DNA of 64,000 bases from positions 264,811 to 328,810 of the forward strand of contig CAVOUK010000002.1 in the NCBI GenBank assembly GCA_963699585.1, given 5' to 3'. A program made the translations under genes and the position numbers. Shown here piece after piece: positions 1,380 to 18,020 of the stretch. Below the pieces are notes generated by a model that was not told where the DNA came from, made no database searches, and worked only from the letters and a program-made list of their open reading frames with translations. Each line of letters starts with the position of its first letter. The stretch's first letter is position 1. The DNA is from Thermodesulfovibrionia bacterium. Lineage in GTDB: Bacteria; Nitrospirota; Thermodesulfovibrionia; UBA6902.

Positions 1380-1435
1380 ATTGGCGTGGTCAAAATCATT
1401 ATGAAGGAGGACTGCAATGTATCCTTTACAACCAT

Positions 1436-1618
1436 GTGACACAAATAAGTTTATCCAATAATTATCATTGTCCTTTTATAGATGAGGGGAAAAATATTTG
1501 TTCGGCCTCATTGTCATCCATTATTGTCGGATCGCAAATCAGACGTACGCTCTGCTCCAGTGAGAATTATGACAATTGCCCGATTTTTCTGGCAAAGATA
1601 CTGAGAAGGGCAGGATAA
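1436..1618 (+). CDS. small 4-Cys protein, paralog of 2532-2738
   Basis: 60 aa with pattern C-x9-C-x17-C-x7-C (HCPFIDEGKNIC...LCSSENYDNCPIF). AAGGAGG at 1404-1410 precedes an out-of-frame ATG at 1417, so the true 5' end may be frameshifted. Confidence 0.5.
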   Translation: MTQISLSNNYHCPFIDEGKNICSASLSSIIVGSQIRRTLCSSENYDNCPIFLAKILRRAG

Positions 1619-1803
1619 GGTATATTCCCTGAAGTACATAGAAAATTAACGTTACGGATAATTCACCGGACTTTCATGATACTTTAACCATCCTGTATGT
1701 ATCATATTTTGTAATAGGCAAAAATTGCTATTGATTAGGGTGGCACATCATGAAATCTGATCAACATAAACATTCTCAATCCTCAATATAAAAGGAGTTT
1801 CAT

Positions 1804-2382
1804 ATGACCAATGAGCATGACATAGGCAAGACAGGCATTTCGGTAAGAGAAGGGGTAGTAAGTAGTTTAAAGGGCATTAATGTAATTGAGGCAGAAATAG
1901 TCAATCTTGTGAAGGACACGGTTTCCAGCACTCTTAAGGCGACAAACTCTGTGGCGAATGAAACCGTTAATGTTACAAAGGATGTTTTAAGGGGAGCCAT
2001 CCAGGCAACTGAAGAGGTAGGAACAGGCCTGATGACGAGCACAAAATACGTGGCGAAAGGGGTTATTCTTGGAGTCAATGAAGTCGGCGGAGATGTAATC
2101 ACAGCAGCCGTTCAGATTGCAAAGACCGCTGTACATGGTGCTTCAGAGGTTGGAGCCGATATTGCACTCGTGGCGAGGAGGGCTGCCGAGGGAGTAATAG
2201 AGGCAACCAGAGAGATAGGCGGCAATGCGGAAGAAACGGCAAAAGCGACGGTAACCGGTGCGATTGAGGCAGCTGGCGCCATCAGCAATACGGCTGTGAA
2301 AACCGTAAAAGAGATGCTCATAGGAGTGGCCGAAGGAGTTAAGGAAGTTGCAGGGACTGCCCTGCCGAAGTCAGGCGGTTAA
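1804..2382 (+). CDS. 22-residue-repeat protein (Ala/Gly/Val/Thr-rich, about 8 repeats), copy A
   Basis: AAAGGAG RBS. 192 aa. Repeats register as TKDVLRGAIQATEEVGTGLMTS / TKYVAKGVILGVNEVGGDVITA / AVQIAKTAVHGASEVGADIALV / ARRAAEGVIEATREIGGNAEET and so on. No signal peptide or TM segment. Clearly paralogous to 14049-14726. Confidence 0.8.
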   Translation: MTNEHDIGKTGISVREGVVSSLKGINVIEAEIVNLVKDTVSSTLKATNSVANETVNVTKDVLRGAIQATEEVGTGLMTSTKYVAKGVILGVNEVGGDVITAAVQIAKTAVHGASEVGADIALVARRAAEGVIEATREIGGNAEETAKATVTGAIEAAGAISNTAVKTVKEMLIGVAEGVKEVAGTALPKSGG

Positions 2383-2473
2383 CCCGGTAATGGTATCAGG
2401 CTATGCACCCGACAAGCTTCTTTTTATAATGCAATAATAGCGGTGCGTGCCTATGTTAAATTATCTTAACCGC

Positions 2474-2484
2474 CATGTAACGCT
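2474..2484 (+). promoter_or_regulatory. CATGTAACGCT motif upstream of the 4-Cys gene, shared with the 14805-14815 site
   Basis: The 11-mer is identical, on the coding strand, to the site upstream of the copy-B repeat-protein gene. A TATAAT-like box follows at about 2497. Confidence 0.25.
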
Positions 2485-2531
2485 CATTTAACAGTCATTC
2501 TTTTATAATATATGCTTAGGAGGTAATAGAA

Positions 2532-2738
2532 ATGAAAACAAGAGACTATAGCATTTGTCCGCATCTCAAAGGCAGCACCGAGGGGAGCATATGCGGGGTC
2601 GTTAACAGTCTTATCAAGGATATGGAAGGCTTTACGGTCAAACTGTGCATGAGCAGGCGCCATGAGGCGTGTTCCATGTATAAACGGTCCTTACAGAACA
2701 TGATTGAGTGCGGCTGTTATTCGATCAGCATGCAGTAG
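2532..2738 (+). CDS. small 4-Cys protein, paralog of 1436-1618
   Basis: TAGGAGG RBS. C-x11-C-x17-C-x7-C ([14 protein letters not shown]...[13 protein letters not shown]), the same C-x17-C-x7-C spacing as the other copy. Confidence 0.6.
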
Positions 2739-2747
2739 CCGGGAGAA

Positions 2748-3191
2748 TTGATTATGGAGAAGAAGAGAGTCCTTTTCGTATGTATCCATAACAGCGCGCG
2801 CAGCCAGATGGCTGAGGCATTGTTAAACACCCTGGGAGCTGACAGGTTCGAGGCTGAGAGCGCAGGGCTTGAACCTGGCGCACTGAATCCCCTTGCCGTG
2901 GAGGCAATGAAGGAAATCGGGCTTGATATATCGGCAAATCAAACCAAAGGAGTTTTTGACTTCGTAAAACAGGGAAAGTTGTTCAATTATGTCATCACCG
3001 TATGCGATGAAACAAGCGGCAGCAGATGCCCGGTTTTTCCCGGCTATACAAAGAGACTGCACTGGAGCTTTCCCGACCCTTCAGCGCTGAAAGGAACACA
3101 TGAAGAAAAACTGCAGGAGACAAGGAAGATACGGGATGCAATCAAGATAAAGATAGAAACATGGATCAAGGAAACCGGTGAATCAGCATAA
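2748..3191 (+). CDS. arsC: arsenate reductase, thioredoxin-coupled LMW-PTP family
   Basis: [17 protein letters not shown]-loop (CX5R) plus the downstream Cys pair [18 protein letters not shown]. Confidence 0.8.
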
Positions 3192-3299
3192 ATTGAATCC
3201 TGAGAGACTTGCCGTTATACCCCCAAGCAGCAGCAATGTTACAAAAAATTTAATATTCTGTTCATCATTGTTTAACATTAATGGCATATTATTAAGAAT

Positions 3300-3599
3300 A
3301 TGAAAACAGATACTGTTATGGCTGACAAAGCAAAAGTACAGTGTCCAGTCTGTTCTTCTGATGCATCATACAAATACGGCAGGATTAAGACAGGAAAGCA
3401 ACGTTACATGTGTCTTATGTGTAGCTCACAATTCACCCCCGACGGAAAGAAGTCGTTGGTTAAGGGAAAACCGGCATGTCCTGAATGCGGGAAACCGATG
3501 AATGTATATAAGCTGGAGGGCGACGTCATCAGGTTCAGATGTTCGGGATATCCGATATGCAAAACTTTTAAGAAATTTAAACTCAAGGAGGATGCATGA
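3300..3599 (+). CDS. double zinc-ribbon protein (IS1 InsA-like CxxC...CxxC followed by a topoisomerase-type C4 finger)
   Basis: CPVCSS...GKQRYMCLMCSSQF and CPECGKPMNVYKLEGDVIRFRCSGYPICKTF. The stop overlaps the next start (ATGA at 3596). Confidence 0.55.
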   Translation: MKTDTVMADKAKVQCPVCSSDASYKYGRIKTGKQRYMCLMCSSQFTPDGKKSLVKGKPACPECGKPMNVYKLEGDVIRFRCSGYPICKTFKKFKLKEDA

Positions 3600-3967
3600 G
3601 CTATTACTTGCATAATATTCCGGGAAGGCTCAGGGTAAAGAGCCCGCTTCTGAAAAGAAACGATGCTGCTGCAGACGAACTCAAGATGGCGCTCAGTGCG
3701 ATCCAGGGGATTGCCGCAGTTGACTTCAACCCGATGACAGGGAGTCTCCTGATCAACTATAACCACCGGACAACGAAACACGAGGATATAATCAGTCTGC
3801 TTGAGCGCAAAGGGTATTTTGACCGGAAGAAGGCTGTGTCGAACGATAGTTACTTTCATAATGCCGCAGAAAAGACAGGCCGTGTTATAGGTAAGGCAGC
3901 CCTTGGTATGGCTTTAGAAAAGGCATTTGAAGGCTCCGCGCTTTCACTCATCGGTCTGCTAATCTAA
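3596..3967 (+). CDS. HMA-like 'GRxRxK' small protein a, with hydrophobic C-terminus
   Basis: HNIPGRLRVKSPLLK...IQGIAAVDFNPMTGSLLINYN. There is no CxxC metal site. The C-terminus reads GKAALGMALEKAFEGSALSLIGLLI. Confidence 0.65.
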   Translation: MSYYLHNIPGRLRVKSPLLKRNDAAADELKMALSAIQGIAAVDFNPMTGSLLINYNHRTTKHEDIISLLERKGYFDRKKAVSNDSYFHNAAEKTGRVIGKAALGMALEKAFEGSALSLIGLLI

Positions 3968-4049
3968 TTTGCACTTAAGCTCCCCTGCCCTTCCATAAGG
4001 TGCAGATCTTCATTATATCCCCACATATTTCCTTTTAGAGATAATAAAG

Positions 4050-4922
4050 TCATACCTTATGTGAGAGTTTGGCGTTGAACTCCGATGCATCTTCGTATAA
4101 TTCAACGTAGACGTCTGAAAAACCGAACTGGTCTCTCAGACGTTGTTTCATCGTCCTGATCTTTTCCCTGCCGTATACAGAGCCGTTCGTCCTTATCCTG
4201 ACAGCCATGATTATCCGTTCGGGGGATAGTCCCCATATATGCAAATCCTTGATTGTTTGAATGTCATGAAAGTGACCATTCAGATAGCGTTTGACTTCAT
4301 CGATATCGACCGCTCCAGGATTCCCCTCCATGAGTATGTGAACGCTCTCTTTGATAAGAAAATAGGTCGGATAGGCAGCCAGCAATCCTATGATCACTCC
4401 TGCGAGTGGATCGATGAAGTAAAGGTGAGTATATCTTATCATGAGAGATGAAATTATGACGCCCACAGAGCCAAGGGTGTCATTCAGTATTAGGAGCCGT
4501 GCCCCCTTGATATTCATATCCCCGGCGTGCTTATGAAGCCGTATTAATCCGAAAGCATTCACCATGAGCCCTATCAGAGCGATGAACAGGACCTTATCAG
4601 CCTCAAGAGCTTCAGGATGTATTATCTTATGGTATGCATCAATCAGGACATAGAAAAGCAGGAATCCGACGAGCATCCCGTTGAACAGGCCCGACAGGAC
4701 TTTCGCACGCTCATAACCAAAGGTCTTATCCTTGCTCGGGAGCCTTTGCGCAAGCCTCCCCACGTACAAGGCAATGAACTGTCCGGAAATATTGATAGCC
4801 ATAAACGATGCGTCTGTAACAAGGGCAAGGCTGCGGTAATAAAACCCGCCGAGGAGTTCTACGAAGAAGTAAATGATGGTGAAAAAAAGGACTATCTTCT
4901 GGTCATTATTGCTCATGATCAA
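4050..4922 (-). CDS. cation diffusion facilitator (CDF) family transporter with non-canonical transport-site residues
   Basis: 290 aa with six TM segments, ...FGYERAKVL..., DTLGSVGVI, and a C-terminal LHIWGLSPE domain. TM2 and TM5 site residues read F..N / L..D instead of H..D / H..D. Confidence 0.8.
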   Translation of the reverse strand: MIMSNNDQKIVLFFTIIYFFVELLGGFYYRSLALVTDASFMAINISGQFIALYVGRLAQRLPSKDKTFGYERAKVLSGLFNGMLVGFLLFYVLIDAYHKIIHPEALEADKVLFIALIGLMVNAFGLIRLHKHAGDMNIKGARLLILNDTLGSVGVIISSLMIRYTHLYFIDPLAGVIIGLLAAYPTYFLIKESVHILMEGNPGAVDIDEVKRYLNGHFHDIQTIKDLHIWGLSPERIIMAVRIRTNGSVYGREKIRTMKQRLRDQFGFSDVYVELYEDASEFNAKLSHKV

Positions 4923-5099
4923 TTCCGGGTGATTCGCTACATTCGCGGACTCGATTCATCTTAACATATCAATTTCGCTGTTCCCACGTATTCCTTCATT
5001 ACTTGCCTATAAGGTAATGATTGGCATAGTTCGCCGGATGGTTGAAGATTATGAAGGCATAAAACAGCAGAGGACAGGGGCCTTTAAGGAGGGGGGAGC

Positions 5100-5862
5100 T
5101 TATTTCCTGAACGCGTATTTCGGATTGGACGGGTCAAAGTCGGTATCGGTGAGGCCGGCGTTCAGTTGCAGGGACTCATATCCATATCTCTCAATAAGTC
5201 TGTCACTCCAGTCGAAGAGACTCACTTTAACGGGCAAATCGGTTTCAATATCAATATTTAATATTGACCGGTAACAGTAATACCCTTTTGCCACGGACGA
5301 AGGGAAGATGAATTCCACCTTTCTGGTCTTGCGGCCATATACCATTTCCTCGCCCCTGTCGATGACATCAATCTCTTTGTTTTTCATCCCGGTCCTGATT
5401 TCCCGTCCGATGAGTTGAACGAGGTGTTCAATGCCGGCCTCTGTTATCGGATGACGGCTTCCCTTCATGATCAGGGGGCCTGCCGGATCGAGATCCAGGT
5501 TTATCAGATCCTGCAAGTCCGCACTCGCGCACCTTCACAAGATTGTTATTGCCGCCGTCAACATAAATGGCCTCTCTTCCGTAAGAGGGTTCTTTGATCC
5601 ATTTCATGTAAACCTTAAAAGGTTTCATAAATTTCAGATAGATCGTTTCTTCTTCGTTGAGAGCTTCTCCTATTCTCTCCTGCTTATGGAAAATGGCCGC
5701 GTAACTATTCACTGAGGACAACGTCTGTTCCGCCCGCATGGTCCATTCTTCCGGGCTGAAATTTTCCTGTCCAAACACCCTGGAGCAGGTAATCAACAGG
5801 AACGCAAGATGTATAGAGCATTCCGTAGGTATACGACGTCTGTGCAAATCCATTTTTTTCAT
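5100..5862 (-). CDS. DUF1571-like (LolA-fold) secreted protein, frameshifted near 5520
   Basis: GGAGGA RBS before ATG 5862 (MKKMDLHRRR... signal-like). YLKFMKPFKVYMKWIKEPSYGREAIYVDGGNNNLVKV lies in ORF 5428-5895. The continuation is in ORF 5100-5516. Confidence 0.6.
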
Positions 5863-5891
5863 GTCAGTCCTCCGCGATGAACAACTATTGT

Positions 5892-5960
5892 CCACAGATT
5901 ACGCAGATTAAATAAAACAATCTAAAAAATCTGTGTTCATCTGTGTAATCTGTGGATGAA
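5892..5960. repeat. CCACAGATTAC...AATCTGTGGATGAA inverted-repeat element, copy 1
   Basis: Arms are CCACAGATTACGCAGAT (5892-5908) and ATCTGTGTAATCTGTGG (5940-5956). The right end AATCTGTGGATGAA is identical to 57942-57955. Confidence 0.7.
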
Positions 5961-6089
5961 TTTATTTCAATTCTTCTCGGTGCATTACATAGAACATTAA
6001 TTTTACTATCGACAGCATTGCTTTATTATGAAGATTCAATGAAAAGATTGTTAAATTATTAGTGTGCTAATAGCTTGATTTCAGTATTT

Positions 6090-6146
6090 GTCATTTCCGC
6101 TTGTCGGGAATCCTTCTCCAGGAAGACTCCGGACAAGCCCTTTCAC
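6090..6146. repeat. REP/MITE-like palindromic element (GTCATTCC...CCGGACAAGCC family), degenerate copy
   Basis: GTCATTTCCGCTTGTCGGGAATCC...ACTCCGGACAAGCCC. GCTTGTCGGGA pairs with TCCGGACAAGC. Confidence 0.6.
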
Positions 6147-6239
6147 GCTTTAACCGAGATTTCATTTTGCTGTCATCAAAAGGTAACCATCTTTTTTATA
6201 TACTGGTCTTGCAGGTAAAAATTTTATCAGGAGGTTGTT

Positions 6240-6635
6240 ATGCAAGATATTATGAGACAAGGAGTAAAGAGTATGCTTTTTGAGAAAAGGAGGACCATAC
6301 TGCAAAGTGCAAAAGACGGTATGAAGACGATGATTTCGGGAGAAGTAAAAGCGATTCTCGGCCCCGGATTTGATCAGGGTGATATGTCGACGATTTATCA
6401 GATCGAGCATATGCAAAGCAAACAATTCGGCAAACAGATTGATCTCATCAGATCAATCGATATGGCATTGAAAAAGCTCAACGACGGTACGTATAACATT
6501 TGTGAAGAGTGTGATGATGAAATCGGAGAGGAACGGCTGAGGGCGGTTCCTTTTGCGCGCTACTGCAGGAACTGCCAGGAGAAATATGAGATACTGACAT
6601 GTATGGCATCGCCATCCAGGCGAGTCGAATTTTAA
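6240..6635 (+). CDS. DksA/TraR-family C4 zinc-finger protein
   Basis: AGGAGG RBS. C-terminal CEECDDEIGEERLRAVPFARYCRNCQ. Confidence 0.8.
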   Translation: MQDIMRQGVKSMLFEKRRTILQSAKDGMKTMISGEVKAILGPGFDQGDMSTIYQIEHMQSKQFGKQIDLIRSIDMALKKLNDGTYNICEECDDEIGEERLRAVPFARYCRNCQEKYEILTCMASPSRRVEF

Positions 6636-6650
6636 TTAATAGTGAGAAAC

Positions 6651-6709
6651 GAATAATGAACAATTAAGGAATCTACCATTAATTACTCATTATTAATTGT
6701 TAGTGAAGG
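6651..6709. repeat. AATAATGA / CTCATTATTAATTGTT inverted-repeat element, copy 1
   Basis: The 16-mer CTCATTATTAATTGTT at 6686-6701 is identical to 60855-60870. The partner arm is GAATAATGAACAATTAAGG at 6651-6669. Confidence 0.55.
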
Positions 6710-6891
6710 AAGGTGCGCTTTGGAGCAGCATAGCATGATGGAGCATCCAGCCTATGAACTTGTACGAAAGCAGAGGAAAGGCAGAAGGGCATGATTTTGT
6801 CGACTTGCTTGAAGAAATAAGGATTATATTCGAGCCGGGCGGCGGAGACGAAGAATAAGACTGGTAATCAGATCAGGATATACTAAATCAT

Positions 6892-7878
6892 TCACTGGTA
6901 TGAAAACACGTTCGTCAGATCTAATAAGTCATCAACAGTAGCAGGATATTCAGGATCGAAGGACGATATGCCAACACTCATAGACAATTTATAGTCAAGA
7001 CTGTTTTTTAAGTTGTAAGTTTCAAAGTTTTTTTGTAATCGAGCTGAAATTGTTTCAACGTAATCTTCGGAAGTTTCTATTGGAAATACTACGAACTCAT
7101 CCCCTCCTATGCGTGCAATAATATCGGACTCACGATAAGTATTTTTTAAAATTCTGGCAACCTCAATTAATGCCCGGTCTCCTTCTTTATGACCGTACTT
7201 ATCATTAATTTTCTTAAAATTATCTATGTCTGCATAAAGTAAAAAGAGTTTCTTGTTTTGACGTTTAGCAAGTTTTAATTGATGTTCCATCAAGTTGAAG
7301 AACCCTCTTCGGTTACACAAACCTGTGAGGTCATCGGCATATGACAGTCTAAGAAGCTCATTTTCCATATTCTTAAGATTACCGATCGCCTTGGAAATAA
7401 TGGTAACAGCTACTGTTTTGCCTTCCTTGTTTTTAACAGGGCTATATGTTTGAAGAAAATATTTACCATCCATGATACTTTTATATTCATACTGAGAAGA
7501 CTCTCCAGTTTCAAATACCCTGTCGACTTTCTCACTAAATAACTCTGATTCCAATTGAGAATGGAAATCGCTAAATGGGCGGCCTTCATATTGGACATTT
7601 GGTAGACCGATCCTTGATAAATGCTTTTTGTTTATAAAGAGATATTTGTAATTTCTATCTACTAAATATATAGAGTCATCTGTTGAATCAACTAAAGAAC
7701 GATATGTACTTTCAGTCTCCTTTCGCTCATAGATATTCTTTTCTAAACTTTTTGTATAAACTAATATGAAGCCAAGAATGATAGAGGTTATTAAGGCAGT
7801 AACCCCGCCTACAATTAAATGTTCATAATTAAAATACGGGATTTCAGGATGCAAGCCGGGCGCTTCAGCGAAAGCCAC
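6892..7878 (-). CDS. membrane-anchored PAS-GGDEF diguanylate cyclase
   Basis: N-terminal TM helix, a PAS-like segment, then ...DDLTGLCNRRGF... and RIGGDEFVVF. Confidence 0.85.
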   Translation of the reverse strand: MAFAEAPGLHPEIPYFNYEHLIVGGVTALITSIILGFILVYTKSLEKNIYERKETESTYRSLVDSTDDSIYLVDRNYKYLFINKKHLSRIGLPNVQYEGRPFSDFHSQLESELFSEKVDRVFETGESSQYEYKSIMDGKYFLQTYSPVKNKEGKTVAVTIISKAIGNLKNMENELLRLSYADDLTGLCNRRGFFNLMEHQLKLAKRQNKKLFLLYADIDNFKKINDKYGHKEGDRALIEVARILKNTYRESDIIARIGGDEFVVFPIETSEDYVETISARLQKNFETYNLKNSLDYKLSMSVGISSFDPEYPATVDDLLDLTNVFSYQ

Positions 7879-7915
7879 ATTCTCACGAGTGATGGGAGAT
7901 AGATCCCATTGTTTT

Positions 7916-8467
7916 CTATATTTGTATGAACTTTAATGCCGCGCCGATAAGTGCGGCCTGTTCTTTGCTCATCTCGCCCAAACTGTCACGACGTTCCGTC
8001 ATGCGCCGGAAGCGAGTGAAGTCTGTCGGCAAACCTTCGGTGTCCACAAGATAAGCAATTTTCTGGATGATCACCCTGATGTCTTCCGGATGTTTTATCC
8101 GGCCTTTTATCTTGGGGAAATATTTCATTCTCATCCGGCCTCTGGAGCTGTCGAATTCGATATCTGTCACCCGGTGCATCGCGAGAATAACGTAATCACC
8201 GAGCGATTGCCAGAAGATCTCATCGTGATATTTCCAGGACGGGAGGTAAAAGCGCAATAAGGCAGGCTGTTTTTTCCCGCTTGGCGAGATGCTCTTATAA
8301 AGAACGACGGGGAAATTATCTGCCTCTTGATCATCGATCTTTTCGAGCTTTTCAAATAAATTGATTCTTTGCTGCTTACGATAAAGTTTATCGATCTGAT
8401 CTAAAACGCCGCCCTGTCCAATGCCGTCCTGAACTTTCTTGAGTACCGTTGTTATGGTGTTTGTCAT
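7916..8467 (-). CDS. hypothetical protein (183 aa, no family recognised)
   Basis: Long ORF in the same orientation and closely spaced between corA and the GGDEF gene. I see no recognisable motifs. Confidence 0.5.
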   Translation of the reverse strand: MTNTITTVLKKVQDGIGQGGVLDQIDKLYRKQQRINLFEKLEKIDDQEADNFPVVLYKSISPSGKKQPALLRFYLPSWKYHDEIFWQSLGDYVILAMHRVTDIEFDSSRGRMRMKYFPKIKGRIKHPEDIRVIIQKIAYLVDTEGLPTDFTRFRRMTERRDSLGEMSKEQAALIGAALKFIQI

Positions 8468-8516
8468 TGTTCGACTCCTTAATATTATTCCTAACTGAAG
8501 AAATCCGCTTATCCCC

Positions 8517-9495
8517 CTATATCCAACTCAATCGCCTGAAAATAAAAAACATGCACAGCACCTGCAGTATCGAAGCGGCCATGATGACAATAAAGGTCGT
8601 ATAGGTACCGAGGAACATCCATGGGTTATCTACCCCGCCGGGCAAGATGAACATTCATACCGTAAAGGGTCCCTATAAGGGTCACGGGGATGGAGAAGGT
8701 AAACAGGAGCGTCAGGACGGTAAGTATCTTGTTGGTCCTGTCGGAGCTTATGATCACGTCTGTCTCCTTGTAGATATCGAGTGTTTCCCTGCATTCTTCA
8801 AGTGTGGTCCAGACCTTGTCTATGTAATCAGCAAGGTCGCTGAAATAGTCCCCCATGTCCTCACCGGTAAAACGCTTTATTTTTTTTTCAAGCTCATAGA
8901 TGACCCGCTTAAGCGGGAAAACCGTTCGTCTGAAATTGGCGATATTATGGCGCAGGCCCGTCACCTCTCTGACCGCGCTGACATGCTCATCAAAGACCGC
9001 TTCTTCAATATCTCCAATCGTGCTAAGTATCTTTGAAGCCATGACAAGCAGGTTCTCGGACAGACTGTAAATAATCTCATAAAGCAGACTTGCAGGCGAT
9101 GACAAACCGTCAGCAAGCTGAGTCTTCCCGTTCCGTGACGTATCAGGGCGGTTGCCTTTACAGTACAAATTAAAGAGATTTTGCAGCGGCTTCAGCTCTC
9201 CGTTATGCACGGTCACAAGAAAATCCTTTCCCACGAAGACCGAGAGCTGTGTGGGGATGGAATATTTCTTTTCCTTAACGTAACGGGGGAAATGCAGAAT
9301 GATGAAGAGATAGTCATGATATTCATCGATCTTCGGGATCTGGTTTTTTGAAAGACAATCCTCAAGATTGAGGTCATTGAATGGGTGGATCGTTTTCAGG
9401 GAATTTACAAGCTCGGTTTCAGGAGCATCTATATTGATCCAGGTGAAATGACCGGCGTCAACTCTGTATGTAGCAAGAAGCTCGCTTTTGATCAT
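8517..9495 (-). CDS. corA: CorA-family Mg2+/Co2+ channel, frameshifted near 8640
   Basis: ORF 8626-9495 ends ...TLIGTLYGMNV. The expected continuation LPGGVDNPWMFLGTYTTFIVIMAASILQVLCMFFIFRRLSWI* is in the -1 frame and ends at 8517. The start overlaps the metK-like stop (ATGA). Confidence 0.8.
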
Positions 9496-10700
9496 TGTGC
9501 ATCATCCCTGAGCTCCGCAGCCTTATCCGTCAGCTCCCAGGGTAGTCCTATATCCATTCTGCCCACGTGCCCATAGGCGCTGAGTTTTCTGTAGAATCCT
9601 CCCTTAATAGTAGATGGAAGGTATCTGAGGTTAAACCGTTTGAGAATCCCTGCGAGACGAAAATCAAAATGTCTCCCGATGAGTTCGGCGATCTTATCAT
9701 CCGGTATCCTGCCGGTGCCGAAGGTCTCGACCTGAATGCTGACCGGTCGTGCATGTCCTATCGAATAGCTGAGCTGAACCTCACATTCATGAGCAAGTCC
9801 GGCTGCTACTGCATTTTTGGCCGCATATCGCGCTGCGTATGCGCCTACCCGGTCGATCCTCACAGGGTCCTTTCCGCTGAGAGCGGCGCCGCTGTGGCGT
9901 GAATATTCTCCATAGGTGTCTATGGCGTTTTTTCGCCCGGTGAGTCCGGAATGGACAGAAGGCCCGCCGACGATGAAGGGACCGTCAGGATTAATGAAAA
10001 TCCCTGTCCTCTCATCAGGCCTTATTTCTTCATCCTGGAATGCCGGGGTGATTATGTTGTCAATAATGTCGTCCCGTAGCTGTTGAAGATCAGGCCCTCC
10101 TTTGGCAACCGGCTTAAGCTGGGATGCTATGACCGTAACGCTGTGGATCCTGCGCGGCCTGTTGTCCACATATTCAACACCGACCTGTGTCTTGCCGTCA
10201 GGCATGAGGTATGGGAGAATTTTCTGAATTCTCACCGACGACAGCTTTCTTGAAAGCTTATGCGCAAGCCATAACGGAAGCGGCATAAATGAGGCTGTCT
10301 GATTGCATGCATAACCGAAGAGCGTCACCTGGTTTCTGACCGGGATGCGCTCCATCTCCTCATCGGAGAGTTTCCGCTCGTCGAAATTACGCTCATTGTT
10401 CAGCGGTAGTTCTTTAAGGCTTGTAATGATGCTGCATGTCTTGCTGTTGAAATCCTTCTGATCGTATCCTATCTGGTTGATAACATTGCGCGCTACGTTT
10501 GAGAAGTCTACATATGCGGCTGATGAAAACCTGGCAGCGATAAAAAGTATGGCTGTCGAGACAGCGCATTCTGCTATGACCGATGAAAAAGGGTCCTGCT
10601 GGAGAAAATGATCGACGATCGCATCGCTGATCTGATCGCACAGCTTATCAGGATGCCCTTCTGTAACCGACTCTGAGGAAAAAATGAAGTCCTTTTTCAT
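9492..10700 (-). CDS. divergent S-adenosylmethionine synthetase (MetK)-like protein
   Basis: SESVTEGHPDKLCDQISD, LMPDGKTQV, GLTGRK, DTYG...SGKDP.RIDR and AYAARY are all present. GAGDQG, GGEI and GGP.GD.G are replaced (see finding). Confidence 0.8.
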   Translation of the reverse strand: MKKDFIFSSESVTEGHPDKLCDQISDAIVDHFLQQDPFSSVIAECAVSTAILFIAARFSSAAYVDFSNVARNVINQIGYDQKDFNSKTCSIITSLKELPLNNERNFDERKLSDEEMERIPVRNQVTLFGYACNQTASFMPLPLWLAHKLSRKLSSVRIQKILPYLMPDGKTQVGVEYVDNRPRRIHSVTVIASQLKPVAKGGPDLQQLRDDIIDNIITPAFQDEEIRPDERTGIFINPDGPFIVGGPSVHSGLTGRKNAIDTYGEYSRHSGAALSGKDPVRIDRVGAYAARYAAKNAVAAGLAHECEVQLSYSIGHARPVSIQVETFGTGRIPDDKIAELIGRHFDFRLAGILKRFNLRYLPSTIKGGFYRKLSAYGHVGRMDIGLPWELTDKAAELRDDAQ

Positions 10701-13482
10701 GCCACTGCCTCCTTTGCGCTTTCATGCTGACATTGTTGATGTTACCGGCTTCAGTGTCCTTGAGCAGCATCTTTTGCGGTCTCTTCGTGGCCTCGTTAAT
10801 AAGGAGAGGCGTTACTGCTGTGCCTCCGACCACAAGCCAGTCGGCAAGACCAAGAGGCGTGAGACCAAGCAGGTTTCGCAGGCCGGGCACAACCATTGCC
10901 AGTCCCTGTAATCCTGCAGAGCCTGCAAGCGCGGCGTCGAGATAACGGTTCGGCGGTAGGGGCGTACGCCGTTCGCCCTTACTTTGTCATATATGCTGTG
11001 CTTTTCAGAACGGCAGCTTAAGGCATGGAGTATCTGTCCGAAGGTTAGGCTCATAAATGCCATAGTGCCTGCCTGTGCTCCCATGCCATATCTCATGATC
11101 CCGTAGCCGTAGGCCCCCAATGAGCCTGCTGAGAGCATCGCTGACTTCAAAGGCGATCCGTTTGAAGTCATCCTTCCTGACAATCGGCTCATCAGGATTT
11201 CTCGGAGGCATGCTGAGCACATCAGGTTCAGGCGGTTCAAGCGCAAGCGCCAGTCCCGGCGCTATGTCCGAGATGAGGTTGATCCAGAGGAGCTGCATGG
11301 CAGTAAGGGGCTGTCCCATACCGGTTGATATGGCCCCGAACATGACCATGATCTCGCTCAGGTTCGTTGCAAGGAGAAAGTGGACCGATTTACGGATATT
11401 GTTATAGATCGTTCTTCCCTGACTGATTGCAATTATCATAGTCTCGAGGTTGTCGTCTTCGATAACGACATCCGCAACTTCACGTGCCACATCCGTGCCG
11501 GTGTGCCCCATCGCAATACCGATGTCAGCTGCCTTAAGCGCCGGCCCGTCATTGATCCCGTCCCCTGTCATTGCCACAACCCTTCCTGAGGACTGAAGCG
11601 ACTGGACGATCTGGAGCTTATTGGCAGGGCTAACGCGCGCAAATACATGCACCTTTTCAGCCAGCGCCTTCAAGACATCCGGATCGAGGCTGTTCAGGTG
11701 TGTTGAGTCGAGTATTTCGAGCTGCCCGTCTTTGCTGAGGTTCAGTTCTTTGCCGATGGAGTAAGCGGTCGGTCCCTGGTCTCCGGTGATCATGACTGTA
11801 TCAATTCCCGCAACATGATACATGCCTATAAGTTCCTTTACACCGTTTCTTACAGGGTCCATCATTCCGGAAAGACCGAGCCAGACAAAATGCATGGTAT
11901 CGAGTGAGTTATCAGAGGTATCCGGCGTGTCTGACAATTCATTCAATTCATCGGAATATGCATAGGCAAATCCAAGCACCCGTAAGGCTTCTCCGGCCAT
12001 ACGCTCATTTTCGATCTGTATTGCTTCCCTGCTTTCCGCCGTGAGAGGGAGTTTTTGACCGTCCTGCATGTGCCATATACAGATCGACAGGACATCCTCA
12101 GGACTGCCTTTTAAAGCGAATATGGCTGCCCTGCGGTCGTGTGAGGCATTAGGATTAATATCGTGAACAGTTAACATAATATTGCTGTTTTCAGACCTGT
12201 GTCGTATCGTCCTGAGAGGGAATTTGTTCCGGAGTTCAGGCACGTGAACACCCGTGCTTATCGCCACCTGAAGAAGGGCATTCTCGGTTGACGAGCCTCG
12301 GAGTAATAATTCTCCGTTTTCGCTGGAGACGTCGCTTTCATTGCAGAGACATGAAATATGAATGAGTTTCAGCAGTTCATCGCACTCATATGGGTTAATA
12401 TCAGAGGCATCGTTTCGGAATCTCCCTTCAGAGACCTTTAGCCTCTTCATCCCGACGAACATGGAGATAACAGTCATTTTGTTCAGGGTAATGGTCCCGG
12501 TCTTGTCAAGACAGATGGTCTGCACCGAACCGAGAGTTTCTACTGCGTCAAGGTGACGGATAAGTACGTTGTGTTTTCTCATGTTCCTGATGCCGAGCGC
12601 CAGTGTTGTGGTAGCTACCATCGGCAACCCCTCGGGTACTGCGGCAACAGCAAGAGCTATAGAGGTCTTCAGCATCTGGAGAAAGCCATAGCCTCTCAGC
12701 AGTCCTATCAGAAAGACGAGACCACACACGGCTCCGCTTATATAAACAAGCTGAGTGCCCATTTTGTCAAGCTGCCGTTCCATCGGTGTTTCAGGAGGAC
12801 GCGCGGTTCCTACGAGCGTCTGTATTTTGCCGATCTCCGTAAATTTACCGGTTGACGTTACAACTGCAAGTCCCTGTCCCCCGGTCACGAGCGTGCCCAT
12901 ATAGACCATATTCGTCCTGTCCGCAAGCGGGATATCACCTTCAGTAAGCGTCTGAGAGCTTTTTATGACCGGCATGCTCTCACCGGTAAGCGCTGATTCA
13001 TCAACGCTCAGATGATGAGATTCGATCAGCCGCGCGTCCGCTGCTATGTAACTTCCCGGTTTCAGGAGAAGAATATCACCGGGAACTATACTCTCGGCAG
13101 ATAAATTATTAAGCACTCCGTCTCTTATGCATAAAGCAGACGGCCTCACAAGATTTTTTAGAGAATGGATGGTCTTTTCCGCCTGTGTCTCCGTTGTATA
13201 GCCTATGACCCCGTTAATGACGACCACTCCGGCAATCACGACCGCATCGGCGATGCCTCCCGTTGCTATGGAGACTGCTGCCGCAACGCCAAGAAGGGCG
13301 ACAGGAAGGGATTTAAACTGGTCAAAAAAAATGCTGAGTCCGGAACGGGGGACGGATTCGGGGAGCAGATTTGGCCCGAATTTCTTTAATCGCTCAGACG
13401 CGGTGTTTCCTGAAAGCCCCGCTGCCGGCAGCACACCCGCAGAATCAAGCGCTTCACCGGCGCTTTTCAGATGCCATTGCAC
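10648..13482 (-). CDS. P2-type (SERCA/PacL-like, Ca2+-type) cation-transporting P-type ATPase, C-terminal part frameshifted twice
   Basis: LTGES, VPEGLP, ICLDKTGTIT, KGSPE, MMDPVR, MITGD and MTGDGINDGPALKAADIGIAMG are present. The C-terminal TM region continues in ORFs 10812-11246 and 10648-10896, with shifts near 11135 and near 10970. Confidence 0.85.
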
Positions 13483-13880
13483 CTGAGGCTGGTCTTCAGC
13501 ATGGATGACGCTCTTGCGGACCTGGCGACGGCTCTTATTGAGTTTCCTGTCTGGCTCAGTATGACTTCCTGCTGATCTAATGACCGATGTAGATCAGGCT
13601 GCCGGGTTTTTGTTGTGAGCGAGGTACTCTCGGGCGTATGATTATTGCCGTTATATTCTTTTACCGCGGCCTCAATGACCCTGCTTATTATTTCAGCGGT
13701 ATTGCCTGAGTTGAAATTGACAATAACGCTTCCGGTCAGGACATTTGCGGAAAAGCCTGTTATGCCAGGATGAAGACTCAGCGCCTCTTCAATTTTTATC
13801 CTGAGCGGATCTGTTCTGTAAAGCCCTTCAACTTTTAACCGTACCCGGCCTTTTACTGAATTGTGAACGGTATGAACCAC
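13467..13880 (-). CDS. HMA-like 'GRxRxK' small protein b (may originally be an N-terminal domain of the ATPase)
   Basis: VKGRVRLKVEGLYRTDPLRIKIEEALSLHPGITGFSANVLTGSVIVNFN. It overlaps the GTG start of the ATPase. The ATPase frame is open for another roughly 40 codons upstream. Confidence 0.65.
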   Translation of the reverse strand: MVHTVHNSVKGRVRLKVEGLYRTDPLRIKIEEALSLHPGITGFSANVLTGSVIVNFNSGNTAEIISRVIEAAVKEYNGNNHTPESTSLTTKTRQPDLHRSLDQQEVILSQTGNSIRAVARSARASSMLKTSLRCNGI

Positions 13881-13908
13881 ACTATTTATCCTGGAAAAAT
13901 TATTTGGA

Positions 13909-14026
13909 CGCAGATGAACGCTGATAACTGCCGATACAACAAAACGTTATAGTTATTTTATCCTTCACCTTTCCGGTGAAGGATAAATTTATTTTAACTT
14001 CTAAAAAGATCCGCGTTAATCTGCGG
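13909..14026. repeat. degenerate member of the CGCAGAT/ATCTGCG inverted-repeat family flanking a hairpin
   Basis: GACGCAGATGAACG (13908-13921) against CGTTAATCTGCGG (14014-14026). It encloses the perfect hairpin at 13958-13986. Confidence 0.4.
13958..13986. terminator. perfect 12-bp stem / 5-nt loop hairpin between the copy-B repeat-protein gene and the ATPase operon
   Basis: TTATCCTTCACC-tttcc-GGTGAAGGATAA. The U-tract is better on the + strand, while both neighbouring genes are on the - strand, so its function is uncertain. Confidence 0.4.
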
Positions 14027-14048
14027 CTAACTGCCGTTTTTAGATTTA

Positions 14049-14726
14049 TTAACCCCGTTTGCTACTTGTCTTGGTTTTAACCTCCACAGGGGCGGCCTTC
14101 TTTGTGGTTGCGGCTGTTTCAGTCCGTCGCGGTTTTGGGAGCGCAACGTTTGCAACATCCTTAACTCCCTCAACCACGCCTACAAGCATATCCCTGACAG
14201 ATTGTACTGCAGTGGTACCTATTGTGCCTGCTGCTTCCATAGCGCCGTTTACCGCCGATATCGCGACATCACCCGCATTGCCGCCGACTTCCTTGCTTGC
14301 TTCGATTACGCCGTCAACTGCCCTCCGAGCAACAAGGGCCACATCTGCGCCTATATCTGCGGCCCCCTTTACAGCGCCTTTTACTGTCTGACTGGAAACG
14401 GTAATTATGTCTCCTCCGACGTCACTTACGCCCATGACTATTCCCTTTGCAACGCTTTTGGTGCTCAGGATGAGCCCTGTGCCAACTTCTTCAGTTGCCT
14501 GAATAGCGCCCTTTACAACATCTCTTGTGATGTTGACGCTCTCTGTTGCTACCTCACCCGTTGCGCGGAGCGCATTGGATACAGTGCTCCGAACAAGCGT
14601 TACGATCTCAGCCTCGATCTCATTGATCCCTTTAAGGCTGCTGATGACGCCGTCTTTGACAGTGGAACCAGCCCTGCCGATACCTTCCTGAAAACCCTCT
14701 CCGCTCATCACTTGCTCATTCGTCAT
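14049..14726 (-). CDS. 22-residue-repeat protein, copy B (with Lys/Thr-rich C-terminal tail)
   Basis: GGAGG RBS. 225 aa. Same repeat register as copy A (TRDVVKGAIQATEEVGTGLILS / TKSVAKGIVMGVSDVGGDIITV / ...). Roughly 60% identical to copy A by eye. Confidence 0.8.
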   Translation of the reverse strand: MTNEQVMSGEGFQEGIGRAGSTVKDGVISSLKGINEIEAEIVTLVRSTVSNALRATGEVATESVNITRDVVKGAIQATEEVGTGLILSTKSVAKGIVMGVSDVGGDIITVSSQTVKGAVKGAADIGADVALVARRAVDGVIEASKEVGGNAGDVAISAVNGAMEAAGTIGTTAVQSVRDMLVGVVEGVKDVANVALPKPRRTETAATTKKAAPVEVKTKTSSKRG

Positions 14727-14804
14727 AATAGACCTCCTTTTTTCGGTTTGAAATAAATGTAGCGCTTGTGTAAATGAAATTGTTTAGTAATATGATAAAG
14801 AAAC

Positions 14805-14815
14805 AGCGTTACATG
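14805..14815 (-). promoter_or_regulatory. CATGTAACGCT motif upstream of the copy-B repeat-protein gene
   Basis: The reverse complement of AGCGTTACATG reads CATGTAACGCT on the coding strand, about 80-90 nt upstream of ATG 14726. A TATCATATT -10-like box follows; the same 9-mer lies upstream of copy A at about 1697-1705. Confidence 0.25.
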
Positions 14816-14846
14816 AGCGCGACATCCGGGTTAAATTATTATTAAA

Positions 14847-15326
14847 TCATTCCGGCTGCTTATTGTCAGAATTCGATTTAAGGAAAATATTAAGGGCATA
14901 CCATCCGGCTGCGTACCAGGGGATTGCAGCGACATTCCCCCTCCATACCTGGTATATGCCTGCACCAATGAGCGCAAGAACCGCAGCCCCGCCGACATCC
15001 AGTTCGTTCCCTGTAATATCACGTATGGCGACGTTTGCTTCCTTGAATGCATCGTTGACCCTCCGGTGGAGATGTGTACGGGTGTACCGGGGGCCTGCAA
15101 ATGTTAGAAGCTTATTTGTTTTTATCGTTTCAACAATGCTGACGGGATCATGTGAATGATGGATCAATATGCTGCCCGTAAGCTCGCTGATCTCAACTTT
15201 ATTTACTCCTTCAATGCCGGATATCTCATTTAAAAGAAGAGTAAGAAAGTTTATGTCCTTTCTTTTTGAAGGGACCTTGATCCTGATTCGTGAACCTGTT
15301 TGATGGCTGACAAAGGCAACCGGCAT
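14847..15326 (-). CDS. HMA-like 'GRxRxK' small protein c, with C-terminal transmembrane region
   Basis: MPVAFVSHQTGSRIRIKVPSKRKD...EISELTGSILIHH. The C-terminus DVGGAAVLALIGAGIYQVW...IPWYAAGWYALNIFL suggests two TM segments. The ATG lies 1 nt after the upstream stop. Confidence 0.65.
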   Translation of the reverse strand: MPVAFVSHQTGSRIRIKVPSKRKDINFLTLLLNEISGIEGVNKVEISELTGSILIHHSHDPVSIVETIKTNKLLTFAGPRYTRTHLHRRVNDAFKEANVAIRDITGNELDVGGAAVLALIGAGIYQVWRGNVAAIPWYAAGWYALNIFLKSNSDNKQPE

Positions 15327-15327
15327 G

Positions 15328-15618
15328 TCATGCCCCCGCTTCTCCCTCAGGAGCTGGGGCATGCGCAGTTTCGTTATGCGCTTCAGCCATTTCAGCTTTG
15401 GCCTCCGCGACGACATCTTCAGCGACTTCACTCAGCTCAGCAAAAGTCTCTTTCCCCTTCTCATAAAGTACAAGACCGCCCTTGATGGCTGATTTGAGCA
15501 GAGGCTTTGCCACTCCTGCCAGTGCAGGGAGCACTACCGGAGCTAATATCGCACCGCCGATACCGATTGCGAGACCTGTCAACAAATTGCCTTTTAAACC
15601 ATTATCGAATAATCCCAT
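15328..15618 (-). CDS. DUF5132-like small membrane protein
   Basis: GGAGG RBS before ATG 15618. MGLFDNGLKGNLLTGLAIGIGGAILAPVVLPALAGVAKPLLKSAIKGGLVLYEKGKETFAELSEVAEDVVAEAKAEM matches my recollection of the DUF5132 pattern. Confidence 0.5.
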   Translation of the reverse strand: MGLFDNGLKGNLLTGLAIGIGGAILAPVVLPALAGVAKPLLKSAIKGGLVLYEKGKETFAELSEVAEDVVAEAKAEMAEAHNETAHAPAPEGEAGA

Positions 15619-15798
15619 AACGCCTCCAATTGTTCTTGTGTATTGATAGCATGAGTTTAACACCGTCAAAACAGCGTGTCCATGGGATCTTTCATTACCT
15701 GCCTACTTTTCACTGAAATGTAATACTACTGTTATAACGGTGTAACAATAAACTTGCTAACGTATTGATAACGCACAAATATCAGGAGGTGGATAATT

Positions 15799-16063
15799 AT
15801 GATTTTTTACACCGTCAAACATCACATACGTGGAAGAATTAGAGTACAAATACCTCTGATTAAAACGATGACTCTGACAGAACTGAAAGCCCTGGCGGAG
15901 AAAATATTTGCTGAACGACCGGCCTGAAGGCATAAAATACATCAGGGCAAACCCGCTGACCGGCAGCGTCACCATAACGTATGATCCGTCCACGATAGAT
16001 ATTAAAGCATATATAAGAGACCTGGCATCGAGCGAAGAAATACAGCGTCTCACTCTGCAGTAG
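15799..16063 (+). CDS. HMA-like 'GRxRxK' small protein d, frameshifted near 15920
   Basis: AGGAGG RBS. MIFYTVKHHIRGRIRVQIPLIK...AEKIFAE, then a +1 frame gives PEGIKYIRANPLTGSVTITYDPSTIDIKAYIRDL...*. It is not in the ORF track because both halves are under 60 aa. Confidence 0.55.
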
Positions 16064-16381
16064 AGCAAAAATAGGTCGTATTAAAAAAGACGGAAGTCTG
16101 TTCATTGCGGATGCATACGTATAATTTCATCTGAAATTAATATGATTTTAATATTGTTTTAATATTCTTCTGATATCTTAATATCAAGAACATCTTATCC
16201 GAACGCTAGATAATAGAGTCTGTTTATAAGGTTGGATATTAAAAGCATGTAATAGTGAACCGTTAATCTTTTTATTAAGAAAGATTCTGATACCCAAACA
16301 TCGGACACAGGCAAGCCGGAAGGACAGACAGAATACTTTAATAAGAATAAACCACATAAAACATTAATAAGTTCAGGAGGC

Positions 16382-16660: not shown

Positions 16661-16997
16661 AAGACATTGTCCATGAAATGTGGACCAGGATACGATATTT
16701 TTCATCATAATTTAACATACGCTTAATATTACTGTAACGTTGCCGGTGTTATTGTAAACCATGATTTTGCTTGTCCTTATTTTCTCGATTTGCATAATCA
16801 CTTTTATAATACTTTTCAGCGCCAGGCCGAATCTTTTTGTTTTCTGGCTGATAGAAAATGTTTTTGGAAAAATGAAAATCTCAGAGGGCACGGAAAAAGA
16901 TACCGATAAAAAGGAGGGACAGAATATGTAACTGTATCACTGAATTTTATATTGCGGTTGTAACCATTAACGAAGTAAACAAGAATAAGGAGACAAT

Positions 16998-18009: not shown

Positions 18010-18020
18010 ACAATAGTTTC

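Follow-up and report, generated by a model that had tools for sequence, protein, structure and literature searches.

The stretch of DNA analyzed here, called the window throughout, comprises 64,000 nucleotides from a Thermodesulfovibrionia bacterium (GenBank assembly GCA_963699585.1, contig CAVOUK010000002.1, positions 264,811 to 328,810 of the forward strand), and toward its left end lies the gene cluster with which this report is concerned. We have found that this cluster is real, widely conserved and so far undescribed, and that it belongs to anaerobic Nitrospirota-type bacteria. Its core encodes a DUF5132 protein, a CoBaHMA protein with a C-terminal hydrophobic hairpin, a 22-mer helical-repeat protein that we call REP, a P2A-type ATPase carrying a CoBaHMA domain of its own, and the S-adenosylmethionine (SAM) synthetase MetK. 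The reading that we prefer, and to which we give an even chance of being right, is that the cluster is a module of the phosphate (Pho) regulon for the export of Ca2+ (or Mn2+), whose pump would be regulated through CoBaHMA domains docking on acidic partners. Known before were the domain families, the class of pump and the Pho regulon; the cluster, REP and the Pho-linked CoBaHMA pump are new, and no account of these three was found in the literature searched, a body of work that did not include the CoBaHMA family paper. To our knowledge, a Ca-type P2A pump with CoBaHMA, DUF5132, REP and MetK partners is not listed as a member of the Pho regulon.

An earlier note on the window, made from the letters alone, had pictured this region as an island of a cation pump, further transporters, small accessory proteins and regulators, bracketed by two inverted repeat-protein genes. 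All of the genes that it listed, with their coordinates, are present in our map of open reading frames (ORFs), and the identities that it gave to the CDF transporter, CorA, the P2-type ATPase, the MetK-like protein, the DksA/TraR protein, the PAS-GGDEF protein, the double Zn ribbon and the DUF5132-like protein are supported by Pfam. We used a degenerate-pattern scan for REP, run on 185,579 species genomes (one genome per species), to learn how widely the cluster is distributed. REP was found in 198 species-level genomes (198 REP loci, of which 80 were kept), mostly in Thermodesulfovibrionia and other Nitrospirota. Counts given below out of 82 refer to the REP loci that were mapped with the window's proteins by tblastn, while the term long loci is reserved for the 42 loci that contain both REP and the pump and span at least 15 kb of sequence. 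The Nitrospirota carriers comprise Thermodesulfovibrionia, Dissulfurispiraceae, Ca. Sulfobium and Ca. Manganitrophus; some of the carrier metagenome-assembled genomes (MAGs) go under the labels Desulfobacterota, Deferrimicrobium, Acidoferrales or Planctomycetota. Closest to the window are Thermodesulfovibrionia-type MAGs, at 87-95% identity.

The order of the genes recurs from locus to locus as [hma<] DUF5132> hma> REP> hma-ATPase> MetK> [CorA / CDF / ArsC>] [hma< ZnRib< c4<], where ZnRib denotes the double Zn-ribbon gene and c4 the gene of a four-Cys mini-protein, and pstSCAB-phoU frequently adjoins the divergent hma gene. The core part of this order, from DUF5132 to MetK, is kept in nearly all loci that extend far enough. 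The pump accompanies REP in 70 of the 82 loci, DUF5132 in 68 and MetK in 62, in one fixed order, and the ZnRib gene is present in 44. Among the long loci MetK is an invariant member (42/42), followed by DUF5132 (40/42), the hairpin CoBaHMA gene HMA-c (39/42), ZnRib (33/42) and c4 (about 21/42). The co-localization of the cluster genes is far beyond chance, and the co-occurrence of HMA-like, DUF5132, P2-ATPase and repeat genes across genomes, which had been proposed as a check of the island, is confirmed by these counts. The idea of an island stands for the pump and the small accessory proteins, which do co-occur, but not for CorA, CDF, PAS-GGDEF and DksA; together with ArsC and DUF1571 these are variable accessories found in 2-12 of the 82 loci each (ArsC in 12, CorA in 10, PAS-GGDEF in 2) and not part of the core. 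CorA, CDF and ArsC occur in only 6, 9 and 9 of the 42 long loci, respectively.

Spacing within the core is short. The gap between REP and the pump has a median of 6 bp in 67 relatives, and between the pump and MetK the median is 14 bp, with an ATGA overlap as the most frequent arrangement (about 20 of 61 loci). The tight coupling of genes that had been noted in the window holds for the ATGA shared by ZnRib and HMA-a, the ATGA shared by MetK and CorA, and the single nucleotide between DUF5132 and HMA-c, the pair that opens the cluster. It does not hold for the overlap of HMA-b with the start of the ATPase: in more than 60 related loci these two are a single ORF of 1020-1070 amino acids (aa), and their separation in the window is that of a frameshifted fusion.

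The intact fusion begins with the CoBaHMA domain (Pfam HMA_2 at residues 5-78), which is joined by a basic linker of about 60 aa to a complete P2 ATPase with the P-type core motifs, DKTGT and PEGL among them, and the Cation_ATPase_N/C domains of P2 pumps. Among solved structures LMCA1 and SPCA1 come nearest to it, and of the NCBIfam models the PMR1-type Ca-ATPase fits best. An alignment with SERCA2 matched site II, with PEGL in transmembrane segment (TM) 4, N/E in TM5 and N-x-x-S-D in TM6; E309, N796 and D800 (SERCA numbering) are kept. In this respect the earlier description of an undescribed cation-handling system around a P2 pump with Ca-site residues was borne out. Its analogy with the ferrosome fez clusters was not: homology to fez was not detected, no search aimed at it having been made, and the pump is P2A and not P1B-6. 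The heavy-metal P1B models score far lower on it, and all that the two systems share is, in broad terms, a P-type pump accompanied by small membrane proteins. The pump shares its P2A domain set, PEGL and the site-II residues with LMCA1 (Listeria lmo0841), SPCA1/PMR1 and SERCA; it differs from them in the N-terminal CoBaHMA domain with its linker, in a Q that takes the place of E908, and in having a dedicated operon of accessory genes. Its scores lie below every curated NCBIfam equivalog cut-off, which points to a related but distinct P2 clade. Judged by its sequence, the pump is a P2A ATPase of this distinct clade whose ion is most likely Ca2+, Mn2+ being possible.

The four proteins that the earlier note had grouped as GRxRxK HMA-like all carry the CoBaHMA domain, which corresponds to HMA_2 (PF19991, gathering score 30 bits). 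HMA-b scores 34.2 bits (HMA-a and HMA-c are given in Table 1), and in the related locus L003 the intact HMA-d ortholog and the pump N-terminus score 44.7 and 33.8 bits. The name motif is not literal in every case, as HMA-c has SRIRIK and HMA-d has GRIRVQ; what all four share is H-x3-5-(G/S)R-x-R-x-(K/Q), without the CxxC metal site. The CoBaHMA proteins are basic, with isoelectric points (pI) of 9.6-10.3, whereas their partners are acidic, DUF5132 with a pI of 4.9 and REP with a pI of 5.2-5.7. The DUF5132 product has a Gly-rich hydrophobic N-terminus followed by a long acidic helix; the hydrophobic stretch covers ORF residues 24-62 (about 8-46 of the 96-aa product), and an AlphaFold2 (AF2) model gave one long helix with a predicted local distance difference test score (pLDDT) of 77.

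Both families have been met in a calcium context. CoBaHMA was first recognized as the N-terminal domain of some calcyanins (PMC8890360), and Microcystis forms intracellular CaCO3, for which the calcyanin gene ccyA is the marker (Benzerara et al. 2022, PMC8890360; Bruley et al., bioRxiv 10.1101/2024.07.07.602159). Immediately upstream of ccyA in Microcystis are two DUF5132 genes, a gene for CoBaHMA with a helical hairpin and another CoBaHMA gene, and immediately downstream is a Ca2+/H+ exchanger gene; transcripts of DUF5132, the CoBaHMA-hairpin gene and the exchanger track those of ccyA with r = 0.94-0.97 (bioRxiv 10.1101/2024.07.07.602159). The neighborhood in Microcystis aeruginosa PCC 7806, a candidate gene set for intracellular amorphous CaCO3, and our cluster have several elements in common, grouped together in both: a DUF5132 protein (TM plus long helix), a CoBaHMA protein with C-terminal hairpin, one more CoBaHMA protein and a transporter for Ca2+. 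By analogy, no other external evidence speaks as strongly for a role in Ca handling as this link by neighborhood and co-expression.

There are also differences from the Microcystis neighborhood. In our window there is no calcyanin and no GlyZip, and REP occupies that position; a search by pattern, not by hidden Markov model (HMM), found no long Gly/small-x3 zipper of the calcyanin GlyZip kind in any frame of the window, and the REP repeat is a 22-residue amphipathic one and not a GlyZip. As its transporter our cluster has an ATP-driven P2A pump with a CoBaHMA domain, where Microcystis has a Ca2+/H+ exchanger. Our cluster adds the invariant MetK, Pho boxes and a Pho-regulon setting, and its hosts are anaerobic Nitrospirota and Desulfobacterota. 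CoBaHMA and DUF5132 have so far been uncharacterized families beside a marker gene of cyanobacterial intracellular CaCO3; the cluster ties them at the operon level to an identifiable Ca-type pump, with a recognizable regulator, in roughly 200 species outside the cyanobacteria. Gaschignard et al. 2024 reportedly found the CoBaHMA domain both by itself and in fusions with proteins of membrane transport and lipid metabolism, and are said to have proposed that its basic surface binds anionic partners; their work on the family and its architectures is not known to cover the present multi-gene cluster, REP and MetK as partners or the Pho-regulon setting.

REP defines a new helical-repeat family. The 22-mer repeat that had been seen in both repeat proteins of the window is real, with lag-22 z values of 10 and 11 against shuffles for RepA and RepB, respectively. 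The AF2 model of RepB (pLDDT 70) is a solenoid made of alpha helices only, one for each 22-mer, and REP is predicted to be a soluble, mildly acidic protein of 8 x 22-residue helical repeats with no transmembrane segment. That the repeat proteins might belong to a characterized family had been named as a possible objection. No natural relative was found by profile against the PDB, Pfam and NCBIfam or by fold, and in the structure search only de novo designed helical repeats matched. A full HMMER search of 1.84 billion proteins identified 293 representatives at E <= 1e-10, and REP is accordingly a small but real new family without a Pfam or NCBIfam model. A word-indexed search had returned 10 matches and suggested an ultra-rare family, which the genome scan and the full HMMER search exposed as an artefact of the index; two of those 10 relatives lie on long contigs with the same neighbors. 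Interpretations of REP as a beta-solenoid, as an apolipoprotein/LEA-like protein or as a calsequestrin-like Ca buffer were dropped, given that the model is a helix-turn solenoid and the protein is only mildly acidic.

REP is also found joined to other domains. A cluster variant (L083, 1150-2430; short-read assembly) has CoBaHMA, TM and REP in a single ORF, and REP is fused to a MucR/Ros DNA-binding domain in P0001; there is a weak fusion of a receiver-like REC domain to REP in P0340 and an apparent fusion of REP to the pump N-terminus in P0254, possibly a frameshift artefact. Solitary REP paralogs away from the pump cluster occur in L037, L043, L045, L046, L063, L067 and L072 (around position 10000 in most), where the recurrent neighbors are DUF3562, which 23 cluster loci have as well, a membrane protein resembling YtaF/MntP, a radical-SAM-like protein of the B12 type and a protein homologous to the 183-aa one listed in Table 1.

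The regulatory part of our reading draws on the intergenic sequence. Tandem Repeats Finder (TRF) located repeats with an 11-bp period in three intergenic regions, all of them direct repeats of a GTAACA/TTAACA-like hexamer, and in the c4b promoter the hexamers stand exactly at the -35 position, ahead of TATAAT. Going by sequence, 11-bp-periodic direct hexamers at the -35 position are the Pho-box architecture, a feature shared with the classical Pho regulon, and the E. coli Pho half-site GTCATA fits the same degenerate hexamer, KTHAYA. A scan with the TTAACA consensus was too crude to separate a signal from shuffles and was superseded by KTHAYA arrays and a position weight matrix (PWM). Three-hexamer KTHAYA arrays number 12 in the window against 3.3 expected from shuffles, 10 of the 12 being intergenic within 2.4-16.8 kb (the pstS promoter included), and across the 82 loci there are 297 against 39 in shuffles. 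The PWM was trained only on 18 pstS promoters, with the threshold set at the 95th percentile of composition-matched shuffles, and this same matrix fits both pstS and cluster promoters. It scored above threshold upstream of HMA-d in 100% of cases (n=23), of c4 in 75% (n=44), of ZnRib in 67% (n=48), of REP in 46% (n=85) and of DksA in 4/4, as compared with 0-14% for the operon-internal genes (HMAc, HMAb, MetK, CorA, CDF, PstC/B and PhoU). In the window the Pho-type sites are strong for HMA-d, c4b, ZnRib and a 92-aa ORF and moderate for RepB and DksA (scores in Table 1). The RepB site reproduces the layout of the c4b promoter almost unchanged. The array of the 92-aa ORF, between HMA-d and pstS, is one of the strongest of the window.

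Beyond the window, the recurrent neighbors of the cluster are PsiE, PhoH, the OlsB- and OlsA-like ornithine-lipid genes and DUF3562, joined in the loci L001 and L002 by PHO4/PhoU_div, alkaline phosphatase and a porin for phosphate. Of the 42 long loci, 31, spread over several phyla, have one or more Pho markers (Pst/PhoU, PsiE, PhoH or OlsB/A). The connection with phosphate, which had been suspected from the adjacency of the pst genes, is by these arrays and neighbors stronger than mere adjacency. In the window dgkA (21294-21683) lies directly after phoU, and a gene for a Glyco_transf_21-type glycosyltransferase (253-981) has homologs in 10 of the 82 loci; together with the relatives' olsB/olsA-like genes, they hint that phosphate-sparing remodeling of membrane lipids is encoded alongside the cluster.

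MetK and the CDF transporter deserve separate mention. MetK passes its equivalog model (Table 1) and, from its sequence, looks catalytically normal. Its 120 best matches are all cluster-type Nitrospirota sequences, and an identity of 70-78% is retained even where a MAG bears the label of another phylum, which is suggestive, without being decisive, of a cluster-specific lineage that travels with the pump. The CDF transporter had been called atypical, and its transport site indeed has F/N (TM2) and L/D (TM5) instead of H/D/H/D, strictly conserved in 9 loci including the window; the replacement suggests a substrate other than Zn or a role other than transport. A search for riboswitches of the Mn, Mg or SAM type, which could have revealed the ion, found none.

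The mechanism that we propose is as follows. The P2A-type ATPase with its N-terminal CoBaHMA domain would pump Ca2+, possibly Mn2+, out of the cytoplasm. It would be co-transcribed with REP and MetK, with the translationally coupled DUF5132 and membrane-anchored CoBaHMA genes upstream, and two more CoBaHMA genes lie in satellite units, one leading into pstSCAB-phoU and one following the c4 mini-protein and the Zn-ribbon protein. Under phosphate limitation PhoB would bind the 11-bp-periodic GTAACA-type Pho boxes and so induce, along with pst, both the satellite units and the unit of REP, pump and MetK. CoBaHMA may then dock with its basic face (pI about 10) on the DUF5132 helix, the REP solenoid and/or anionic lipids, assembling a membrane complex that gates the pump. 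The pump would keep free divalent cations (Ca2+/Mg2+/Mn2+) low while polyphosphate, phospholipids and nucleotides are drawn down or remodeled, assisted in some genomes by CorA and the atypical CDF. The gating of a P2A pump through an acidic partner is a testable hypothesis for the function of CoBaHMA, and the module would extend the Pho regulon of a little-studied phylum by an arm for the export of divalent cations. Both points bear on research into bacterial Ca2+ handling and biomineralization.

Several results weigh against this reading. Site I of the pump is only partly kept, with E771 present and Q at the place of SERCA E908, and the full-length orthologs reach 604-620 bits where the PMR1-type cut-off is 798 and 537-545 bits where the SERCA-type cut-off is 703; because of these sub-cut-off scores and the E908 replacement, the ion specificity is left between Ca2+, Mn2+ or another ion. 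The case for Pho control is weaker for the pump than for the satellite units, because correctly oriented Pho-type sites are found upstream of DUF5132 in only 10% of cases (n=62) and about half of the REP promoters are without one. The invariance of MetK is the least explained feature of the cluster, and if metK were the sole copy of the genome, constitutive expression of the operon would be demanded. Finally, the docking model is suggested by just two kinds of observation, the complementarity of charge and two gene fusions.

Among the other explanations, the one that survives best is that of an inclusion or organelle-type system, in which Ca2+ (with Mg/Zn/Mn via CorA/CDF) would be loaded into a compartment or granule of amorphous Ca-carbonate or Ca-polyphosphate, acidocalcisome-like, with the hairpin CoBaHMA and DUF5132 proteins marking its boundary and REP as scaffold or coat. 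We regard this idea, which goes back to the earlier note, as unlikely, though the ccyA parallel now gives it a better motive. The same set of DUF5132, CoBaHMA-TM, CoBaHMA and Ca transporter surrounds ccyA in Microcystis and is co-expressed with it, and REP, which is repetitive and Gly/Ala/Val-rich, stands at the place of calcyanin in the neighborhood; the lack of any calcyanin or GlyZip-like sequence in the window, and the prediction that REP is soluble and amphipathic and not apolar, speak against carrying the likeness further. The CoBaHMA-TM-REP fusion would tether REP to a membrane, yet no membrane-remodeling, shell or polyphosphate-kinase gene recurs in the neighborhood. A Ca-ATPase, a CDF and CorA beside phosphate genes resemble the inventory of an acidocalcisome, but Pho boxes imply induction by starvation and not by the phosphate surplus in which storage granules form. 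Intracellular carbonates have been reported in magnetotactic Nitrospirota, while no inclusion has been linked to the taxa that carry the cluster, which are mostly uncultured. If there were such a compartment, controlled Ca biomineralization or storage would extend to widespread subsurface anaerobes. A more specific form of this explanation, that in anaerobic Nitrospirota and Desulfobacterota the cluster builds or services an intracellular cation store under phosphate control that had so far gone unnoticed (for example an inclusion of Ca(-Mg/Mn) carbonate or of polyphosphate, comparable to acidocalcisomes or the CaCO3 granules of cyanobacteria), with the CoBaHMA-gated pump loading it, the hairpin CoBaHMA and DUF5132 proteins bounding it and REP as its scaffold, we consider slightly less probable still. 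Were it true, CoBaHMA and DUF5132 would be the shared ancestral toolkit of bacterial Ca-biomineral compartments, and calcyanin and REP would be lineage-specific partners.

Two further explanations seem to us improbable to the same degree. In the first, the pump (with CDF and CorA) would export Ca2+/Mn2+/Zn2+/Mg2+ as cofactors that metallate periplasmic PhoX/PhoD/PhoA-type phosphatases during phosphate starvation, in the manner of PMR1/SPCA in the eukaryotic secretory pathway. It is established that Pho phosphatases depend on metals, the nearest kin of the pump are of the PMR1/SPCA type, and the Pho-box promoters and Pho-regulon neighbors would fit, in particular in L002, where alkaline phosphatase and metallophosphoesterase genes lie directly beside the cluster; phosphatase genes are, however, not among the recurrent neighbors, and the four CoBaHMA proteins, DUF5132, REP and MetK would be left unexplained. 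In the second, the cluster is a housekeeping efflux operon that merely lies beside pst, with a constitutive DUF5132-to-MetK core carrying the cell's metK and only the satellite genes under Pho control. A catalytically normal-looking MetK that scores above its cut-off, the rarity of oriented Pho-type sites upstream of DUF5132 and the sigma-70-like promoter present there (15682-15654, minus strand) would all agree with this, whereas the Pho-type sites found upstream of REP in nearly half of the cases, the window included, the Pho genes that accompany the cluster in most long loci of several phyla, and the MetK identity across phyla, which fits a cluster-specific lineage, would not. Chance juxtaposition, or an assembly artefact with the paralogs as assembly duplications, an objection that the many single-base indels of the window might invite, can practically be discarded because the paralogs are highly diverged (RepA and RepB are 63% identical, and c4a and c4b are true paralogs belonging to two distinct conserved subfamilies) and the same gene order recurs in dozens of independent assemblies.

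The indels themselves require a comment. Compared with its two closest relatives the window has single-base indels in DUF1571 (5505), CorA (8647), the pump (10967 and 11146), HMA-d (15914) and pstS (17314); extra bases at 13590 and at about 13628 break the HMA-b/pump fusion, and the primase gene dnaG is likewise split (22106-23801). At least eight genes are broken in this way, and the indels do not lie in homopolymers. As essential or near-essential genes are hit (dnaG, pstS and pstC/A) and the two relatives are intact at every compared site, the indels are probably assembly errors rather than signs of pseudogenization or decay.

The features of the cluster region are collected in Table 1. The bracket of REP genes and the boundaries of the island are specific to the window: the two genes are inverted there, as the earlier note had it, but a second nearby REP copy exists in only about 5 of the 82 loci. 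Also unique to the window is the hairpin-bearing insert of about 156 bp between RepB and the pump gene, which is missing in L003, L004 and L007 and has A/T-rich sequence after the hairpin; it might act as an attenuator, setting the expression of REP apart from that of the pump, or represent the insertion of a small element.

Table 1. Genes and putative control sites of the cluster region, with positions in the window
Feature	Position	Strand	Evidence and remarks
c4a, 60-aa four-Cys mini-protein, subfamily CPY..C..C..ENYDNCPIFLAK	1436..1618	+	ORF; homologs with conserved Cys spacing in 20-24 related loci; no match in Pfam or NCBIfam
RepA, second REP copy	1804..2382	+	Lag-22 z = 10; 63% identical to RepB; weak Pho-like site upstream (score 9.8)
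Pho-box-like array TTAACC/GTAACG/TTAACA, 11-bp period, before TATAAT, upstream of c4b	2464..2496	+	TRF; PWM 20.7
c4b, 68-aa four-Cys mini-protein, subfamily distinct from c4a	2532..2738	+	ORF
Low-molecular-weight phosphatase / ArsC-type arsenate reductase	2748..3191	+	Pfam LMWPc 2.1e-15
Pho-box-like array, four hexamers, upstream of Zn-ribbon gene	3238..3280	+	PWM 22.8; 19 bp before start
Double Zn-ribbon protein, IS1/IS1595-like N-terminal Zn-binding domain	3300..3599	+	Profile matches; translationally coupled to HMA-a
HMA-a, CoBaHMA protein, hydrophobic C-terminal tail	3596..3967	+	HMA_2 57.7 bits; hydrophobic residues 105-123
Atypical CDF transporter	4050..4922	-	Pfam Cation_efflux and ZT_dimer
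DUF1571 protein, split by +1 indel near 5505	5100..5895	-	Pfam
KTHAYA array near DUF1571 gene	6027-6054		Array scan; pstS-trained PWM only 8.0
DksA/TraR C4 zinc-finger protein	6240..6635	+	Pfam; Pho-type site upstream, PWM 15.5
PAS-GGDEF diguanylate cyclase	6892..7878	-	Pfam
183-aa basic protein, last gene of pump operon in window	7916..8467	-	Homologs in 5 loci, one beside a solitary REP gene; no match in Pfam or NCBIfam
CorA Mg2+ channel, GMN motif, split by +1 indel at 8647	8517..9495	-	Pfam CorA 2.3e-47; ATGA-coupled to MetK
MetK (SAM synthetase)	9492..10700	-	TIGR01034 380 bits, cut-off 309; product identical to database protein
CoBaHMA-fused P2A-type ATPase ('HMA-b' part 13467-13880)	10648..13880	-	Indels ~10967, ~11146, 13590, ~13628
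Spacer of ~156 bp between RepB and pump gene, perfect 13-bp-stem hairpin 13957-13987	13890..14045	-	Window-specific
RepB, core REP	14049..14726	-	Lag-22 z = 11
Pho-box-like site upstream of RepB	14804..14836	-	PWM 12.5; 77 bp before ATG
HMA-c, CoBaHMA protein, C-terminal hydrophobic hairpin	14847..15326	-	HMA_2 53.5 bits, profile positions 10-141
DUF5132 protein, 96 aa	15328..15621	-	Pfam PF17195 49.3 bits, cut-off 25; product identical to database protein
Pho-box array in divergent control region, facing HMA-d and pst	15709..15750	+	Perfect 18/18 KTHAYA; PWM 22.6
HMA-d, standalone soluble CoBaHMA protein, split by +1 indel at 15914, leads into pst operon	15799..16063	+	ORF; L003 ortholog
Pho-box-like array TTAATAT x3, 11-bp period, upstream of 92-aa ORF	16126..16168	+	TRF, array scan; PWM 29.2
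92-aa acidic protein of unknown family, between HMA-d and pstS	16382..16660	+	Homologs only in closest relatives L003, L007
Pho box of pstS	16701..16743	+	PWM 32.6
pstS-pstC-pstA-pstB-phoU	16998..21287	+	pstS and pstC/A frameshifted in window; homologs adjoin cluster in 24/42 long loci

A few minor observations were made in passing. A coiled, Lys-rich protein of 139 aa without a Pfam match (L078:8315-8734) has homologs near the cluster in 11 loci and is not encoded in the window. Within the window, adjacent DUF3300 and DUF2950 genes at 24046-26431, with very strong Pfam matches, are unrelated to the cluster, and a protein of 1001 aa (37577-40582) combines Peptidase_M1, a ChaN/Tiki haem-binding domain and a PDZ domain in an unusual architecture.

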